A stretch of DNA of 64,000 bases from Alphaproteobacteria bacterium (GTDB lineage Bacteria > Pseudomonadota > Alphaproteobacteria > JAAXGF01). The notes beneath the pieces were generated by a model, which searched no databases, was not told where the DNA came from, and saw only the letters and a list, made by a program, of their open reading frames with translations. Made by a program: the position numbers and the translations under genes. The stretch lies in contig JAYGED010000075.1 of assembly GCA_046582565.1 (NCBI GenBank), positions 4,876 to 68,875 on the forward strand, written 5' to 3'. This document shows positions 9,475-55,172 of this stretch, piece after piece. The stretch's first letter is position 1. Each line of letters starts with the position of its first letter.

Positions 9475-10005
9475 ATGGCCTACGAGCCAAGCAAAGACAA
9501 GTCAGTCGAGACATCACCGAGATACCAGCCAGATCGTGAGCGTCGAGCAACCCTGCGCGCCTTAAAAACCTGGACAACCGCCCAGCACGAAGATGAGATT
9601 CCCGATCTTGCCAGCTTGACGGGAAAGCCGAGCCTGGAGGAAGAACAGAAGGTCTTAACGGAAAACCAGTTTCTCATTTTATTCGAGCCCTATACGTCGA
9701 ATTCGGTAGTTATTTTCTACGGTAGCGAACTGCCGAACATGCTGGAGCAGCGCAATCTGGGAAATGACCTGCAACAGACCTTGCCCTCCTGCTTGAGAGA
9801 TTTGTTCCACGAGGCTTGCAGGGAAGCGGTCGAAAAGGGCGACGTCGTCTATCGCGACGGGAGTATCTACACGCCTTCCGGCGCCGACGTGCTTTACCGC
9901 AGCATCTTCATGCCGTTACGGTCGGATAACTTTTCCAACCGCATATACATCTTCGGTTCATTCAGCAATCAGGACGGCGGCACGGCGCTCCTCGCCGCCG
10001 CCTGA
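9475..10005 (+). CDS. Hypothetical protein (possibly PAS-like fold)
   Basis: The 176-aa ORF has lower GC than its surroundings and is preceded by a 234-bp AT-rich untranslated region. I recognise no named family with confidence. Confidence 0.4.
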   Translation: MAYEPSKDKSVETSPRYQPDRERRATLRALKTWTTAQHEDEIPDLASLTGKPSLEEEQKVLTENQFLILFEPYTSNSVVIFYGSELPNMLEQRNLGNDLQQTLPSCLRDLFHEACREAVEKGDVVYRDGSIYTPSGADVLYRSIFMPLRSDNFSNRIYIFGSFSNQDGGTALLAAA

Positions 10006-48419: not shown

Positions 48420-48533
48420 TGATGTTTTGGATGTTGGCTTTTTAGGCGCGGCCTTGGATTTACCGGTCGCGGCTTTGGTCTTTTTAGGGCTGGGGATGGA
48501 AAGCTCCTCGGTGATGGTGTTGGGCTTTGACTG

Positions 48534-49094
48534 TTACGTCGTTTCGGCTTGGGTCTCTCGGATCTGGGTCGCCGATGTGCTGTTCAATTCGCCTTGGACA
48601 AAAACCCAGGCGGGCGGCGTTTGTCCGGCAAGTTCGTGCGCCCGGCCGGCCTCCAAACGGGACGAGGCAAAGCGCGTCGCCGCCGGACAAGACAGGGCGT
48701 CGTCAGAATAGGTGGGGCGGTCGAAAACGGCAATGGGCAGGGTGGCAAAAATCGTCGTCCAGTCCTTCCATTGTTCCAGTTGCACCAGATTGTCGGCGCC
48801 CATGACCCAGACAAAATCAACAGCGGGATAGCGTTTGATCAGCGCCGCCAGGGTATCGGCAGTATAACGGGTATCCAACTCGCGCTCTATATCGCTGACC
48901 AGGATGCGGCGATCGTCGACCAGCGCCCGGGCGGCATCAAGCCGCGTCTCGAAAGGCGCCATGCCGTGCGCCGGTTTGAGAGGGTTCTGCGGCGATACCA
49001 GCCACCACAGGGCTTCAAGGCCGAGGGTCTCGAGCGCTACCCGGCTGATATGCAGATGTCCCGCGTGAGCTGGATTGAACGATCCGCCGAGCAA
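48534..49094 (-). CDS. nadD: Nicotinate-nucleotide adenylyltransferase
   Basis: The motif GGSFNPAHAGH is present. The real start is probably a few codons upstream at a non-ATG codon. Confidence 0.85.
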   Translation of the reverse strand: MLGGSFNPAHAGHLHISRVALETLGLEALWWLVSPQNPLKPAHGMAPFETRLDAARALVDDRRILVSDIERELDTRYTADTLAALIKRYPAVDFVWVMGADNLVQLEQWKDWTTIFATLPIAVFDRPTYSDDALSCPAATRFASSRLEAGRAHELAGQTPPAWVFVQGELNSTSATQIRETQAETT

Positions 49095-49144
49095 GCCGAC
49101 CCGCTGGCCCGGCCCTTCAACAGACTCAATCGGGCCAGAATTAG

Positions 49145-50434
49145 TCAGGGCCGCACCTGCCCGCTGCCGCGCACCAGATATTTATAGCTGGTCAACTGTT
49201 CGACCCCGACCGGGCCGCGGGCGTGCAGCTTGCCCGTAGAGATGCCGATTTCAGCGCCCATGCCGAACTCGGCGCCGTCGGCGTACTGGGTCGAGGCGTT
49301 GTGCAGCAGAATGCCGCTGTCGACGCCCGCAAAAAACGCATTCGCCGCCGCCTCGTCTTCCGTGACGATGGTCTCCGTGTGGTGCGAGCCATAGCGGGAG
49401 ATATGGTCGACGGCGTCATCCAGGCCGTCGACCAGCTTGGCCGACAGGATGGCGTCGAGATATTCGGCAGGCCAGTCGTCGTCATTCGCCGGGGTCACCC
49501 GGGAGTCGGCCGCCTGGACGCCCGCATCGCCGCGTACGGCGCAACCGGCATCGAACAGGGCGGCGAGAATATCGGGCAGCAGGTGCTTCGCCGCGCGGTC
49601 GACGAGCAGGGTTTCGGTGGCCCCGCAAATGGCGGTTCTGCGCATCTTGCCGTTGAGCACGATATCGCGCGCCATGGCCGCATCGGCGGCGGCATGGACG
49701 TAGGTATGGCAGACGCCTTCGAGATGCTTGAACATGGGAATGCGGCTCTCGGCGCTGATCCGCTCAATCAGGTTGCGCCCGCCGCGCGGAATGATGACAT
49801 CGATGACATCGTCCATGGCAAGCATTTCGCCGACCGCCGCCCGGTCGCGGGTCGGCACCAGCTGGATGCAACCGGCGGGCAGGCCGGCCTCTTCGAGACC
49901 GCGCGCGAGACAGGCAGCGATGGCGCGTGACGACAGGAAGCTTTCGGAACCGCCTCGCAGGATGACCGGATTGCCCGACTTGAGGCACAGGCTTCCGGCG
50001 TCCGCTGTCACGTTGGGGCGCGACTCATAGATCACGCCGATGACTCCAAGAGGCACCCGCACGCGGCTGATGCGCAAGCCGTTGGGGCGCTCCCATTCGG
50101 CCATGATCGCGCCGATCGGGTCATCGAGCTTGGCAATATCCTCCAAGCCCTTGGCCATGGCCTCGATACGGGTTTCATCAAGCAATAATCTGTCGATCAT
50201 GGAAGCGCGCAGGCCCGCCGACCTGGCCTGGGCGACATCCTTCTCATTGGCGGCAAGGATCCCTGCGCGATCATCGCGGATCGCCGCCGCCATCGCCTGA
50301 AGCGCCGCGTTCTTGGTTTCGGTTGAAGCAACGGCCAGGGTCTTGGCCGCAGCGCGGGCGCGCCGGCCGATCTCGGCCATGGTGGTTTCCGGGCCGGTCT
50401 CTTCTGAGTCGATGGAATGAGGCATGGACATCAC
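49145..50434 (-). CDS. proA: Gamma-glutamyl phosphate reductase
   Basis: The protein is a 429-aa aldehyde-dehydrogenase-like ProA. Confidence 0.93.
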
Positions 50435-51549
50435 AGCATCGCCAAATCGTCTCGGTGGATTATTTCCTCGCGCCCACGGTAGCCGAGAAGGCGCTCAATT
50501 TCACGGCTTTTATGGCCCGCTATACGGCGCGCATCATCCGCCGAATAGGCGCAAAGACCCCGCGCCACCTCGACTCCCTCGGGGTCGCGTACGCTGATCG
50601 GGTCGCCGCGCCCGAAGTTGCCTTCGACGACGACCACCCCGGCTGGCAGCAGGCTCTTCCCATTGTTCAGAGCGCCCAGGGCGCCGGCGTCGATGACCAA
50701 GCAGCCGGCGGGCTTGAGGCTGGCCGCGATCCATTGCTTGCGCTGGGTCTTCGGGTTCGAGCCAGCGATAAACCAGGTGCAGCGCGCACCCTCGATCACC
50801 GCTTCCAGGGGATTCAGGCCCGTGCCGTCGACGATCACCATATGGCAGCCCGACGCCATGGCGATCTTCGCCGCCGCCAGCTTGGTCACCATGCCGCCCG
50901 AACCGCTGTCGGGGTTGGGCGGACCGGCCATGGCCTCGATTTCGCCAGTGACCTGGTGAACCTCGGGAATGAAGTTGGCAGACTTATTGCGCCTCGGATC
51001 GGCGTCATAGAGCCCGTCCACATCCGACAGCAGCACCAATAGATCGGCGCTGGTCATCTGGGAGACGCGGGCGGCCAGCCGGTCGTTGTCGCCGAAGCGA
51101 ATTTCGGCAGTCGCCACGGTGTCGTTCTCGTTGATCACCGGCACGGATTTCATACGAAGCAGGGTGTTGACCGTGCTGCGCGCGTTTATATAGCGGCGCC
51201 GGTCCTCGGTGTCGCCGAGGGTGACCAACACCTGCGCCGCCGACAGATCATGACGGGCGAGGGATTCCTGATAGGCATGGGCCAGCCTGATCTGGCCGCA
51301 GGCGGCGGCGGCCTGGCTCTCTTCGAGCTTGAGCGTGCGGCCCGCAGCACAGCCCAGCACCCGGCGGCCAAGCGCGATGGCGCCCGAGGAGACCAGCACG
51401 ACCTCCTGGCCGCGCTTGCACATGGCGGCCACATCGTCGCACAGGGCGTTGAGCCAGGCACGGTGCAGGGTTCCCCGCTCTGCATCGACCAACAGGGCCG
51501 AGCCGATCTTGATGACAACGCGCTTGGCAGCACTCATATGCGCCTTCAT
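50431..51549 (-). CDS. proB: Glutamate 5-kinase
   Basis: The sequence begins [20 protein letters not shown]... and includes a C-terminal PUA domain. The ATG overlaps the obg TGA stop (ATGA), and the track ORF is extended at the N terminus. Confidence 0.9.
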
Positions 51550-52553
51550 GACGCGACCTCGATGGCCGGCAAGGCGACCTTCGCAAACAGGGCGCGGAGC
51601 ACCGTCTCGACGCCGGAACCGGCGACCCCGGACAAGGGATAGACTTCGACCCCAGCCGCATCGGCGAGGCGACTGCACTGATCCGCGATGGCGGCATCGC
51701 TCAAGGCGTCGCATTTGTTGAGCCCGACAATGGCCGCTTTATCGACCAGGCCGCCGCCGTAGGCATCAAGCTCATGAAGTACTGTTTGGTAATCGCCAAC
51801 GATATCCTCGGCGGTGCCATCGACCAGATGGAGCAGCGCCTTGCAGCGCTCCACATGGCCAAGGAAGCGATCGCCGAGGCCGACCCCGTCATGGGCGCCC
51901 TCGATCAGCCCTGGAATATCGGCGATCACCATATCCTTGTCGTCGAGGACGACCACGCCGAGTTGGGGCACCAGGGTAGTGAAGGGATAGTCGGCGATCT
52001 TGGGCCGGGCGCGGGAGACCGCGGCGAGAAAGGTCGATTTTCCCGCATTGGGCAGGCCGACCAGGCCGACATCGGCAATCAACCTGAGCCGCAGGCTGAT
52101 ATTGCGCTCCTCACAGGGTACGCCATCATCGGCGCGGCGCGGCGCACGGTCGGTCGAGGTCTTGAAATGCTGGTTGCCATAGCCGCCGCCGCCGCCCACG
52201 GCGAGCACCACCTGCTCGCCAGGCTCGACGAGATCGGCAAGCAGGATATCGCCGGCTTCATCGAAAATCTGAGTGCCCGCCGGAAGCTGCAACTCGATGT
52301 TCTCGCCCATCGCTCCGGTGCGGTTGCGCCCCGAACCGGGACGGCCGTTCTTAGCCTTGAAATGCCGTTTGTAGCGAAAGTCGACCAGGGTGTTGAGAGC
52401 CGGCACGCAAACCGCCACCACATCGCCGCCGCGGCCGCCGTCGCCACCGTCGGGACCGCCGTATTCGACGTTTTTTTCACGCCGAAAGCTGACACAGCCG
52501 GCGCCGCCATCGCCGCTGCGGATATAGACATGGGCTTCGTCAAAAAATTTCAT
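51546..52553 (-). CDS. obgE: GTPase ObgE/CgtA
   Basis: The sequence begins MKFFDEAH.Y...G.GG.G..SFRREK, and the G-domain carries GLPNAGKST. Confidence 0.95.
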
Positions 52554-52562
52554 GGCCGCCTT

Positions 52563-52620
52563 GGTCTTAGGACAAAGAAAAAGGGGAATGGGGTCTTAGG
52601 ACAAAGAAAAAGGGGAATGG
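52563..52620. repeat. Perfect 29-bp tandem direct repeat x2 (ggtcttaggacaaagaaaaaggggaatgg)
   Basis: The repeat lies between obg and rpmA, and its second copy runs into the rpmA terminator hairpin. Confidence 0.85.
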
Positions 52621-52633
52621 AAAACCATTCCCC
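52598..52633 (-). terminator. Rho-independent terminator downstream of rpmA (minus strand)
   Basis: On the minus strand the sequence reads ggggaatggttttccattcccc followed by ttttttctttg. Confidence 0.65.
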
Positions 52634-52671
52634 CGACAACCGGGCCCCAATTAGGGAAACTGCCGGGGTTT

Positions 52672-52938
52672 CTAACTCGACGGAACCGGCGGCTCCACGG
52701 AGACATACGGGCGGTCGTCCTTGCGGCGGCTGAACTTGACGTTGCCGTCGGTGAGCGCGAACAGGGTGTGGTCGCGGCCCACGCCGACGCCGGCCCCGGC
52801 ATTGATCTTCGTGCCGCGCTGACGAACCAGGATGTTGCCGGCGAGAACCTTCTCGCCGCCGTATTTCTTGACGCCTAATCTGCGGCCCGCTGAGTCGCGT
52901 CCGTTGCGGGAACTGCCGCCTGCCTTTTTATGTGCCAT
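52672..52938 (-). CDS. rpmA: 50S ribosomal protein L27
   Basis: The N terminus is [22 protein letters not shown]. Confidence 0.95.
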
Positions 52939-53459
52939 CAGGAAGTCTCCTCGGAACTCTGTTTCTTCGCGGCCGGCTTTTTCGCCTTGGCCGGTGCCTT
53001 CTTGGCAGCGGCGGCCTTTGTCTTGGGTGCTGCCTTGACCTCGGCCTCGGCCTTTTTCTTGGGTGCTGCCTTGGCCTTGGGCTCGGCTTTGGCCTTGGGC
53101 TCGGCTTTGGCCTTGGGCTCGGCTTTGGCCTTGGCGGGTTTCTCGCCGGCGGTCAGCAAATCGGTGACCCGCAGGACGGTGATGTCCTGGCGATGACCAT
53201 GGGTGCGGCGGTATTTCTTGCGCCGTTTCTTCTTGAAGACGAGGATTTTATCGGCGCGGGTCTGCTCCAGCACCTTGGCCACGACCTTAGCGCCAGCGAC
53301 CAGGGGGTCGCCCACAGCGGCGTCGGCGCCTTCGCCGATCATGAGAACCTCGTTGAGCTCAATAGACGCGCCCGCCTCGCCCGAGAGTTTCTCGACCGTA
53401 ATAACGTCGTCTTTGGCAACCTTATACTGCTTCCCGCCGGTGCGGATAATTGCGTACAT
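52938..53459 (-). CDS. rplU: 50S ribosomal protein L21 with a Lys/Ala-rich C-terminal extension
   Basis: The sequence begins [14 protein letters not shown]..., and the C-terminal region carries KAKAEP repeats encoded by an 18-nt DNA tandem repeat at about 53040-53140. Confidence 0.9.
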
Positions 53460-53688
53460 GAGTATTTCCTGAGCGGCGCAGCCGAGGCGCAGCGCTGGGC
53501 TGAATAAGCGTTGATGGATGAGGCGCGCACTATACCCGCGAGACGCCTCCTGTCAACGGATTAAGGCGGCAGGCGCCAAGGTTTTCTACGGCAATGGCCG
53601 GGTTGCGGGCCGAGGGTCAATTCGCTACTCTCCGCGCCACGCCGGAAGGGGGCGGCCTGAGCGCCGCGCCGCGACGGGATCGGGACTT

Positions 53689-53778
53689 GGTTGGGTGCTA
53701 GAGTGGTTGAATAGGCTGGTCTCGAAAACCAGTGTGGGTGCAAGCCCACCGTGGGTTCGAATCCCACCCCAACCGCCA
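53689..53778 (+). tRNA. tRNA-Ser (anticodon CGA)
   Basis: I folded this by hand. The acceptor stem is GGTTGGG/CCCAACC, the D-stem CTA/TAG, and the anticodon stem CTGGT/ACCAG with loop CTCGAAA. It has a long variable arm, T-stem GTGGG-TTCGAAT-CCCAC, a discriminator G and a 3' CCA. The total length is 90 nt. Confidence 0.8.
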
Positions 53779-53895
53779 CCCTATGCCTTCGGCTTCGGGT
53801 GGCAGGCCACCCTTGTGGACTGACATTCGAAGACGTTTAGGCGTAGGAGTGTCTCCCGAAGCTCTGTTAGGAGCGTAGGGAGACTGGTACGGCCA

Positions 53896-54075
53896 ATGTG
53901 GTACGTCTATTTTCTTCATTTGAACAATGACGACGTATACGTCGGATCAACGAATGATCTCAAGTGAAGAGTCGAATCGCATCGTCAGGGTCACGTGGTT
54001 TCGATTAAAGCTCACTTACCGGTCACGTTGAAATCGTATGTAGCCGTATTGACCGAGCAGAATGCTCAAACTTGA
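53896..54075 (+). pseudogene. Decayed GIY-YIG nuclease family gene (UPF0213/YhbQ-like) with an in-frame TGA, also C-terminally truncated
   Basis: The translation is MWYVYFLHLNNDDVYVGSTNDLK*RVESHRQGHVVSIKAHLPVTLKSYVAVLTEQNAQT*. It matches the GIY...YVG.T.DL.RR...H motif, and the stop replaces the conserved Arg (CGA to TGA). Confidence 0.5.
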
Positions 54076-54264
54076 GCGATATTTTAAATCCGGCGTCGGC
54101 CTGATCGCAATTCAACAATTTGCGGAAGAAAAACTGGCGCGGGCGTTGAGCAGCTCGAAAGCGGAACAGTTCCACGCTTCGATAGCGGTGCGGCGAATGA
54201 ATTAGCCGAACAGCTGAGCAAATTATAAGTAAGCTGTCTTCTGACTTACAGAGAGATGCAATTC

Positions 54265-54405
54265 ATGACCATACGGTCGGCTATCGATATCGGCGGCACA
54301 TATACCGACCTGCTGTTGGATCGGGGCGGGCTTTGCCGTGTATGCCCCACGAAGGCATACGGATACGCTACAACTAATCAGCACGACATCGAATGGGGAC
54401 GTTAG
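54265..54405 (+). pseudogene. Duplicated 5' fragment of the hydantoinase gene (MTIRSAIDIGGTYTDLLLDRGG...), about 85% identical at the nucleotide level to the start of the gene at 57395
   Basis: Nucleotides 54265-54330 read atgaccatacggtcggctatcgatatcggcggcacatataccgacctgctgttggatcgg, and nucleotides 57395-57460 read atgaccatacggctggctatcgatatcggcggtacttttaccgacctggtgttggatcgg. Reading frame decays after about 22 codons, and the TAG lies 1 nt before the cupin ATG. Confidence 0.55.
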
Positions 54406-54406
54406 A

Positions 54407-54787
54407 ATGACCGATAAGGTGATCACGCGGTTGCTGCCTGACGGAGCGCTGGACGGCGGCATGAAGCCGATGGGCTACATAGACCCCGACACCGTCGTTG
54501 ACGGGGTCGAATTCGACGAACGGGGGCATCTGTTCTTCACTAACGCAGCTGGCAATGTAAACGCCGGCGTGTGGCAGTGTTCGCCCTGCACGGAACAGAT
54601 CAGCGATTATCCCTATGATCAAGTTTGCTTCGTTCTCGAGGGTTCGATTACCATCACGGATAAAAGCGGCCATGCTGAGATGTTCGGGCCGGGCGATTCC
54701 TTCTCCATCCCCCGCGGCTTCAATGGTCTTTGGCAGATGACCGAGCGCTACAAGAATTATTTCGTAACCGTGGAACCGGAGCCTTGA
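54407..54787 (+). CDS. Cupin-domain protein (cupin_3/DUF861-like)
   Basis: Started at the ATG at 54407, the protein is MTDKVITRLLPDG...GVWQCSP...FVLEGSITITD...FGPGDSFSIPRGF.G.W. This start gives about 126 aa and is in frame with the track ORF 54338..54787. Confidence 0.62.
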   Translation: MTDKVITRLLPDGALDGGMKPMGYIDPDTVVDGVEFDERGHLFFTNAAGNVNAGVWQCSPCTEQISDYPYDQVCFVLEGSITITDKSGHAEMFGPGDSFSIPRGFNGLWQMTERYKNYFVTVEPEP

Positions 54788-54846
54788 TAGCCTGATGCCG
54801 GGTGATGAGCCTATCGTCATTGCGCCAAAGAATAAGGACTTAGCAG

Positions 54847-55146
54847 ATGTATGAGATCGACCCGTCGCGAACCGACCTGGCCGAGGAATTCAAGAAAAAT
54901 CCCGGCGGCCCTTATAGCCCCGAACTCACGCTGGTGGTCAACCGGCTGCGCCTGGGGCCGATGGAGGAGCGCACCATCATGGTCTGCACCAAGCGCGGGC
55001 GCGAATGGACCCTGGCGAAAATGCCGACGGTTCGTGGCGCCAAGCTGGAATACTACGAGGACCTCGTGTTCGACGACTACTATGACGCCGCCAGGGAAAT
55101 TTTCCGCATGCGCTGGCATACGGTGACCGGCCAAGAGCTGGCATAA
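54847..55146 (+). CDS. Hypothetical 99-aa protein, possibly the small-subunit partner of the downstream amidase-like protein
   Basis: The ORF lies 26 nt upstream of the 736-aa gene, in an operon-like arrangement. I recognise no family for it. Confidence 0.45.
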   Translation: MYEIDPSRTDLAEEFKKNPGGPYSPELTLVVNRLRLGPMEERTIMVCTKRGREWTLAKMPTVRGAKLEYYEDLVFDDYYDAAREIFRMRWHTVTGQELA

Positions 55147-55172
55147 AAATATTTATCCGAAGGAACGAATCG

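Follow-up and report, generated by a model that had tools for sequence, protein, structure and literature searches.

The borders of genomic islands and prophages (attL and attR) are direct repeats, and the element brings along a replacement copy of the end of its target gene. tRNA and tmRNA genes reportedly serve as integration sites. Transposons usually leave a target-site duplication of 2-14 bp. Genes for REP-associated tyrosine transposases (RAYT) are also known to occur between inverted REPs, and elements of the related IS200/IS605 type do not duplicate larger stretches of their target (PMC2817692). Here, we analyse a locus in which the start of a hydantoinase gene occurs twice, once in front of a cupin gene and once at the intact gene, with three genes in between. 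All coordinates refer to the window, a stretch of 64,000 nucleotides from contig JAYGED010000075.1 of an Alphaproteobacteria bacterium (GTDB lineage JAAXGF01), read on the forward strand.

The locus resembles an island att site in that copies of one end of the target gene flank the insert as direct repeats (70 nt, starting at 54261 and 57391), with the intact gene on one side and a decaying truncated copy on the other. It differs in that there is no integrase or recombinase in the 3.05-kb insert, the insertion hit a protein-coding gene near its start and not the adjacent tRNA-Ser gene, and filler nucleotides are found at the junctions. Moreover, at the other module loci tested the module is not flanked by direct repeats, which argues that it is not a dedicated integrative element. 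As in a transposon target-site duplication, a direct duplication of the target flanks the insertion, but here it measures at least 70 nt, and 54331-57390 holds no transposase and has no inverted repeats at its ends.

The closest match is to gene relics left by segmental duplication or illegitimate recombination, which are truncated, neutral and lineage-specific and have an empty site in relatives. Homology to the parent gene beyond family level, an empty site and, on small numbers, relaxed constraint are all found here, and the fragment is a gene relic, or insertion scar, of this known category. What is particular to this case is that the relic keeps the gene start together with its upstream region in front of newly inserted genes. 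The fragment also recalls leader peptides and upstream ORFs, given that a short ORF ends 1 nt before the ATG of the first operon gene. However, unlike these, it is unique to this lineage, has a weak ribosome-binding site and no regulatory codon run, and contains no alternative terminator/antiterminator structure.

Results

A pairwise alignment of 54261-54330 with 57391-57460 gives 62 identities over 70 ungapped positions, and blastn within the window recovers the pair at E = 1.5e-16. Counted from the ATGs at 54265 and 57395, 59 of 66 nt are identical (89%), so that the repeat first noticed in a sequence-only reading of this stretch stands, with its estimate of about 85% (58 of 66) being slightly low. 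The edges of the repeat are sharp, at 54330/54331 on the right and about 4 nt 5' of the ATG on the left. Translated, the fragment reads MTIRSAIDIGGTYTDLLLDRGG and then continues in frame into unrelated sequence up to a TAG (54403-54405), which lies 1 nt before the cupin ATG at 54407, as the same reading had described. This remainder of the ORF (54331-54406) is unlike later parts of the hydantoinase or anything else in the window, and the window holds no other hydantoinase (both by in-window blastn). The same arrangement is present on 12 distinct metagenome contigs (99.7-99.9% identity) from different samples and assemblers and is therefore not an assembly artefact.

Given that the N-terminus of hydantoinases holds the conserved motif DIGGTFTD, we also compared the 5' ends of 79 orthologues from other species. 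Their first 66 nt share on average 40 positions with the gene in the window (best 51/66), and at best 47/66 with the fragment. The 59/66 between fragment and neighbouring gene exceeds the best orthologue, which indicates a specific relationship beyond motif conservation; the match is not a low-complexity stretch either, the outcome that would have undone the original observation. The features of the locus are listed below, with relatives numbered as in the text (L136, closest hydantoinase relative; L139, one of the two closest module relatives; L141-L143, relatives with the same flanks).

Upstream of the tRNA-Ser gene, minus strand: proA, proB, obg, rpmA and rplU
53689-53778, plus strand: tRNA-Ser(CGA) (ARAGORN, Rfam); synteny with L141-L143 reaches its 3' end
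53896-54140, plus strand: GIY-YIG nuclease pseudogene, disrupted by a TGA in frame and by a frameshift (Pfam PF01541, E = 3.7e-10 for the repaired translation)
54197-54264, plus strand: ancestral upstream region of the hydantoinase gene (candidate promoter, 5' UTR and weak GAGAG ribosome-binding site), by blastn against L136
54256-54405, plus strand: upstream ORF arisen by chance, 49 codons long (46 when read from the ATG at 54265), the relic running into the module leader
54261-54330, plus strand: repeat copy 1, the decayed hydantoinase start, comprising 4 nt, the ATG at 54265 and 22 codons (62/70)
54331-54337, plus strand: left junction, the 7 nt CTTTGCC, unlike both the hydantoinase gene and the module relatives
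54338-54406, plus strand: last 69 nt of the native leader of the module (blastn to L139)
54407-54787, plus strand: Cupin_3 (EutQ-like) gene, first gene of the module (Pfam PF05899, E = 1.3e-14)
54847-55146, plus strand: gene like that of the dimethylformamidase (DMFase) small (alpha) subunit, 99 aa (precomputed PF26354, DMF_alpha)
55173-57383, plus strand: N,N-dimethylformamidase beta-subunit-like (DMFA2-like) gene, last gene of the module (Pfam PF20254, E = 1.6e-86)
57391-57460, plus strand: repeat copy 2, the functional 5' end of the intact hydantoinase gene (alignment to copy 1)
57395-61051, plus strand: intact fused HyuA/HyuB-type hydantoinase/oxoprolinase gene, 1218 aa (Pfam PF05378, PF01968, PF19278, PF02538)
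61050-61887, plus strand: REP-RAYT-REP insertion (NCBIfam NF047646, Pfam Y1_Tnp, REP copies)
61888-61911, plus strand: second relic, a decayed copy of the final 24 nt of the hydantoinase gene, TGA included (17/24 to 61028-61051)
61913-62077, minus strand: DUF1674 gene
61995-63425: rsmB

The GIY-YIG pseudogene sits in a variable stretch next to the tRNA gene, outside the duplication; its disruptions were read from a three-frame translation, and L141-L143 do not have it. In the population, SNPs and a 1-nt indel are concentrated at 53986-54129, within the pseudogene.

Several further features of the window and its population were recorded. The rplU gene (52938-53459, minus strand) encodes an L21 protein with a long Lys/Ala/Pro-rich C-terminal extension made of 18-nt repeats, and the number of repeat copies varies among metagenome contigs (indel at 53071-53088), giving products of 167, 173 and 179 aa. 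Farther away, a minus-strand ORF of 645 aa (41974-43911) holds imperfect tandem repeats of several families at 42816-43664, with periods of 66 nt and about 186-192 nt and 74-88% identity, and encodes a repeat-containing protein. In one population contig (L082, position 13450) the hydantoinase gene carries a G>T change, corresponding to 59537 in the window, that makes codon 715 a stop near the HyuA/HyuB domain boundary, and the 1218-aa gene is there called as two genes of 714 and 489 aa. This variant is either a polymorphic fission or the start of pseudogenization.

Closer relatives of the locus, among them L136 and L141-L143, were found by protein search and contig look-up. In L141-L143, whose hydantoinases are 82% identical at the amino-acid level, the gene order is ctpA...proA-proB-obg-rpmA-rplU, tRNA-Ser(CGA), hydantoinase, DUF1674, rsmB and rpe, the same on both flanks as in the window, and both the cupin/DMF-alpha/DMF-beta module and the RAYT gene are absent. 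By blastn, window 48438-53779, up to the end of the tRNA gene, corresponds to L141 4487-9739; 54251-54329 and 57391-61047 both land at L141 9987/9997 onward; and the window from 61888 onward picks up at L141 13643. The closest hydantoinase relative, L136 (89% amino-acid and 88% nucleotide identity), aligns over positions 134-266 with window 54197-54329 in one continuous blastn match (79%, E = 2e-24) that spans 68 nt upstream of its intact gene and the first 65 nt of the gene itself. This upstream collinearity, together with the shared locus in L141-L143, places the fragment at the ancestral start of the hydantoinase gene.

The empty site of the scar is thus seen in the synteny of L141-L143 and in L136, in which upstream region and gene are contiguous. 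Orthologues of the hydantoinase at 82-89% amino-acid identity keep the same downstream synteny (DUF1674/rsmB), and the cupin, alpha and beta genes are absent from 80 of 80 loci of hydantoinase orthologues in reference genomes (amino-acid identity of 68% or less). The comparison with block-free relatives that the sequence-only reading had proposed therefore bears out its core idea, an insertion of the block just behind an ancestral hydantoinase start, which is further upheld by the collinearity with the L136 upstream region and by the homology of 54338-57376 to L139 and L140 inside the repeat-bounded segment. Its alternative, recombination between paralogues, is not supported, given that the fragment has its nearest match in the adjacent gene and lies in the orthologous position. 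What now precedes the intact hydantoinase gene is the end of the beta gene, a context new to it.

In a further relative, L137, a MITE-like element of about 266 nt (9661-9926) with terminal inverted repeats of about 33 nt (ATACCAAGGGTCGTTAATAAAGAC...) lies upstream of the hydantoinase gene, and the right end of this element is also seen at the start of the L136 contig (L136 1-60). Insertions thus appear to favour the stretch in front of this gene as a hot spot.

For the inserted block the closest relatives are L139 and L140. Window 54338-57376 matches L139 292-3301 at 86.5% nucleotide identity (blastn), and the homology to L140 starts at window 54345. In both, the cupin gene is preceded by an intergenic region of 121 nt and then by a divergent ABC-transporter ATPase gene. 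Of that leader, just the final 69 nt remain in the window, and they comprise a conserved dyad (GTATGCC-N7-GGCATAC) as well as the Shine-Dalgarno (SD) sequence of the cupin gene itself, GGGGA. The dyad lies at 54335-54362, 45-70 nt 5' of the cupin ATG, is shared with L139 (about 290-320) and L140 (about 640-670), and may serve the DMFase module as an operator or 5'-UTR element. Modules farther removed (L106, L108, L110, L112 and L114) have a repeated CCTTTACATTT motif in common instead.

Homologues of the cupin (63-87% identity) are likewise encoded upstream of DMF-alpha/beta genes, and the start at 54407 agrees with theirs and is used by gene callers on the independent contigs. The alpha gene invariably adjoins the beta gene in relatives. 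Across 37 metagenome DMFase-beta loci (47-88% amino-acid identity) the conserved module is alpha-beta, with the cupin gene in front in a subset, and the hydantoinase gene is absent from all 37. In L139, too, the beta gene is not followed by a hydantoinase gene. Within the literature library searched, no paper names both dimethylformamidase and hydantoinase.

The beta protein ends in MPG-stop here versus MPD-stop in four close relatives (L099, L129, L134 and L139). Given this difference and the end of the L139 homology at 57376, the right junction is placed at about 57377-57390. About 8 nt around the beta stop codon match neither partner, as do the 7 nt at the left junction. We found no recombinase domain in the block, and its shadow ORFs have no Pfam matches; a mobile module was considered and rejected, as there is no recombinase in the insert and there are no flanking repeats at the other loci tested. 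A foreign origin judged by composition was rejected as well. The GC3 of the module genes (0.70-0.84) is like that of core genes, so that composition is equally compatible with a source in another genome and in the same genome, and the GC dip at 53.8-55.4 kb stems from the pseudogene, the non-coding DNA and the composition of the cupin gene itself, which is the same in L139.

Taken together, we consider it likely that the fragment is an insertion scar, formed when the three-gene module inserted behind the start of the hydantoinase gene and left the ancestral upstream region in front. The ancestral order would have been tRNA-Ser, upstream region, hydantoinase, DUF1674 and rsmB. After the split from the L136 lineage, the cupin/alpha/beta module of about 3.05 kb would have inserted co-directionally after codon 22, with its native leader cut down to the final 69 nt. 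The event would have duplicated 70 nt or more of the target (-4 to +66), possibly from about -10 to -20 and up to about 86 nt by alignment. Such a duplication would restore a complete hydantoinase gene downstream of the module, 11 nt after the beta stop codon.

The 7-8 nt of filler at both junctions, together with the absence of a recombinase, point to an illegitimate event. Candidate routes are a break with widely staggered ends that was filled in, or a template switch during replication that went to the donor and returned upstream of where it had left. A circle with a short 5' segment of the hydantoinase gene could also have integrated in the Campbell manner, but this would need a donor that already had a beta-hydantoinase junction; none was found among the retrieved loci.

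To polarize the seven differences between the two copies (66 nt), L136, L138, L137, L141 and L144 served as outgroups. The fragment has the derived state at six of them, which fall in five codons: codon 5 CTG>TCG (L5S), codon 12 ACT>ACA (T12, synonymous), codon 13 TTT>TAT (F13Y), codon 17 GTG>CTG (V17L) and codon 21 GAC>GGC (D21G). Four of the five codon changes are thus nonsynonymous, at residues that all six orthologues share. In the intact copy a single change is derived, and it is a synonymous one. Although only seven differences are available, this pattern indicates that the fragment drifts neutrally without coding constraint, consistent with a left copy that would have lost its function at the insertion and drifted ever since.

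The two copies also share the derived states GCT6, TTG18 and GGG22, which are absent from every outgroup. This dates the duplication to after L136, with its uninterrupted site, had branched off. The divergence of the fragment (6/66) is roughly half of the per-lineage synonymous distance to L136 (dS 0.31 in total), a rough figure given the few sites, and gene conversion between the copies could blur the dating. The intact hydantoinase gene shows no mosaicism, being uniformly closest to L136 along its length.

The 3' end of the same hydantoinase gene carries an insertion as well. A RAYT gene at 61142-61819 is flanked by two inverted REP pairs, with a REP unit of 26-27 nt (GAATTAAGTAAGGTGTCCCCTTAATTA) that has no further copies in the 64-kb window, and the hydantoinase stop codon, TGA, takes its last two letters from the first REP. 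The REP-RAYT-REP arrangement is absent from L137, L138 and L141-L143 and is a separate insertion. In L136, a REP-like sequence starts on the hydantoinase stop codon, at the same position as the first REP in the window. To the right of the REP-RAYT-REP insertion and abutting the DUF1674 stop codon, the second relic (61888-61911) matches window 61028-61051 at 17 of 24 positions and the end of the L138 hydantoinase gene at 18 of 20. By blastn, the match of the downstream flank continues for 20-30 nt inside the hydantoinase 3' ends of L137, L138 and L141. Both ends of one gene hence carry insertions bracketed by duplicated termini, 70 nt at the 5' end and 24 nt at the 3' end. Since elements of the IS200/IS605 type leave no larger duplications, the 24-nt duplication is not explained by the RAYT insertion.

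A separate REP-like match was seen upstream of the fragment, where the 12-mer AAGTAAGCTGTC at 54227-54238 matches the core of the RAYT-flanking REP (AAGTAAGGTGTC); the chance expectation is 0.04, for a pattern chosen after seeing the site. The proposal that this 12-mer is the REP end of a mobile unit was rejected, as it aligns with the hydantoinase upstream regions of relatives that have no RAYT gene and is probably ancestral sequence.

The relics of both gene termini bracket 54331-61887, which raises the alternative that the interior of a resident hydantoinase gene was swapped in one step for a 7.6-kb cassette of cupin, alpha, beta, a second, close hydantoinase and REP-RAYT-REP. One event would then account for two otherwise unusual flanking duplications, and the lack of larger target duplications by IS200/IS605-type elements (PMC2817692) speaks in its favour. 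However, L136 has no module and an intact junction between upstream region and hydantoinase gene, yet carries the REP-like sequence at its stop codon, which suggests that the REP is older than the module. In addition, the 3' relic (17/24) is far more diverged than the 5' relic (59/66), albeit on small counts, no donor with such a cassette is known and no beta-hydantoinase junction occurs in the other retrieved loci, and the intact gene is uniformly closest to L136 with no sign of a mosaic. Because of the REP in the module-free L136, the divergence of the 3' relic and the lack of mosaicism, we rank the single replacement below two separate events and regard it as unlikely.

More speculative, and in our view improbable, is a lineage-specific insertion process, independent of a recombinase, that regularly duplicates tens of bases and so preserves the gene that it interrupts, with the 5' relic being co-opted afterwards as a translated leader and promoter donor of the new cupin-DMFase-hydantoinase operon.

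Returning to the insertion scar, the relic ORF can be extended by an in-frame ATG at 54256, which adds MQF. Its 49-aa product has no Pfam or NCBIfam match, and no gene was called at this ORF on any independent contig. It keeps 22 residues of the 176-position PF05378 domain (Hydant_A_N), with F13Y in GGTFTD, and is not a member of that domain family. SD duplex energies are -3.6 kcal/mol for the relic ATG, -5.6 kcal/mol for the cupin and -8.3 kcal/mol for the intact hydantoinase gene, the native L136 hydantoinase SD being similar to the relic at -2.9 kcal/mol. The stronger SD of the intact gene, TAAGGA, is new and formed at the right junction, and the SD of the cupin gene is kept in its relatives. 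The relic would hence be a weakly translated, accidental upstream ORF, with the cupin gene initiating at its own SD.

With respect to transcription, the spacings from cupin through alpha and beta to hydantoinase are 11-59 nt, and the four genes probably form one transcript. A plus-strand scan to 54680 predicts no intrinsic terminator between 54079 and the cupin gene; the sole terminator-like site upstream on this strand is at 54063-54078, before the ancestral upstream region. A simple sigma-70 consensus scan finds no promoter-like site on the plus strand between the tRNA and cupin genes, and a promoter within 54197-54264 is suggested solely by the conservation of this stretch between the window and L136. 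The retained 69-nt leader with its dyad could also hold a promoter of the module's own. Most likely, cupin, alpha, beta and hydantoinase would be transcribed as a new operon from the ancestral upstream region, and the remaining role of the fragment would be positional, in that it holds this region in front of the module. The capture of a promoter by the module and a role of the fragment as leader ORF, both raised in the sequence-only reading, would be plausible but only partly supported, and the most economical reading of the relic would be that of a passive scar.

A stronger version of the leader role is that the relic ORF is translated and that its stop, so close to the cupin ATG (1 nt), serves to couple or adjust translation of the cupin/DMFase/hydantoinase operon; melting of the dyad at 54335-54362 would be one way to do so. 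The ORF is indeed open for 46-49 codons and ends in TAG-A-ATG, the ancestral initiation region of the hydantoinase is retained, and only one SNP falls in the ORF among the 12 population contigs. However, the population is 99.7-99.9% identical throughout, which makes a single SNP uninformative, and an open read-through of 25 codons into foreign sequence has a chance probability of about 0.3, estimated as (61/64)^25. The neutral decay, with four of five codon changes nonsynonymous at invariant residues, also speaks against it, as do the weak SD of the relic (-3.6 kcal/mol) next to the conserved SD of the cupin gene. RNA folding around the relic is no better than in shuffled sequences (z = 0.04), 54240-54420 has no match to an Rfam family (the Rfam scan found the tRNA only), and no terminator/antiterminator pair is present. 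Nor does such an ORF accompany the operon elsewhere, with neither an ORF of this kind nor hydantoinase-like sequence upstream of the cupin gene in L104-L130, L139 and L140. We therefore consider a co-opted leader very unlikely.

An origin of the fragment from a different hydantoinase paralogue, by paralogue recombination, or from chance or motif similarity could appeal to the highly conserved ASKHA phosphate-1 motif DIGGTFTD and to the fact that hydantoinase paralogues are common, but is effectively refuted by the match to the adjacent gene (59/66, against at best 47/66 among 79 orthologue 5' ends), the derived synonymous states common to both copies, the collinearity with the L136 upstream region at the locus shared with L141-L143, and the lack of any other hydantoinase in the window.

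Discussion

For annotation, the finding is a caution, given that the 49-codon ORF in front of the cupin gene is a relic and not a gene. In broader terms this is an ordinary case of operon assembly, and it leaves general concepts unchanged. It nevertheless provides a clean and fully bracketed natural example of operon birth, for which the empty site, a donor-like module, both junctions and the relative timing were recovered.

In this organism, a promoter-poor catabolic module, consisting of a cupin and a DMFase-like amidase, has come to lie behind the start of a gene of the ATP-dependent hydantoinase/lactamase type. The upstream region of the host gene was left before four genes, and the host gene itself was kept intact by the 70-nt duplication. 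Two predictions follow, namely that the genes would be transcribed together starting at 54.2 kb and that the DMFase-like enzyme and the hydantoinase would be functionally linked.
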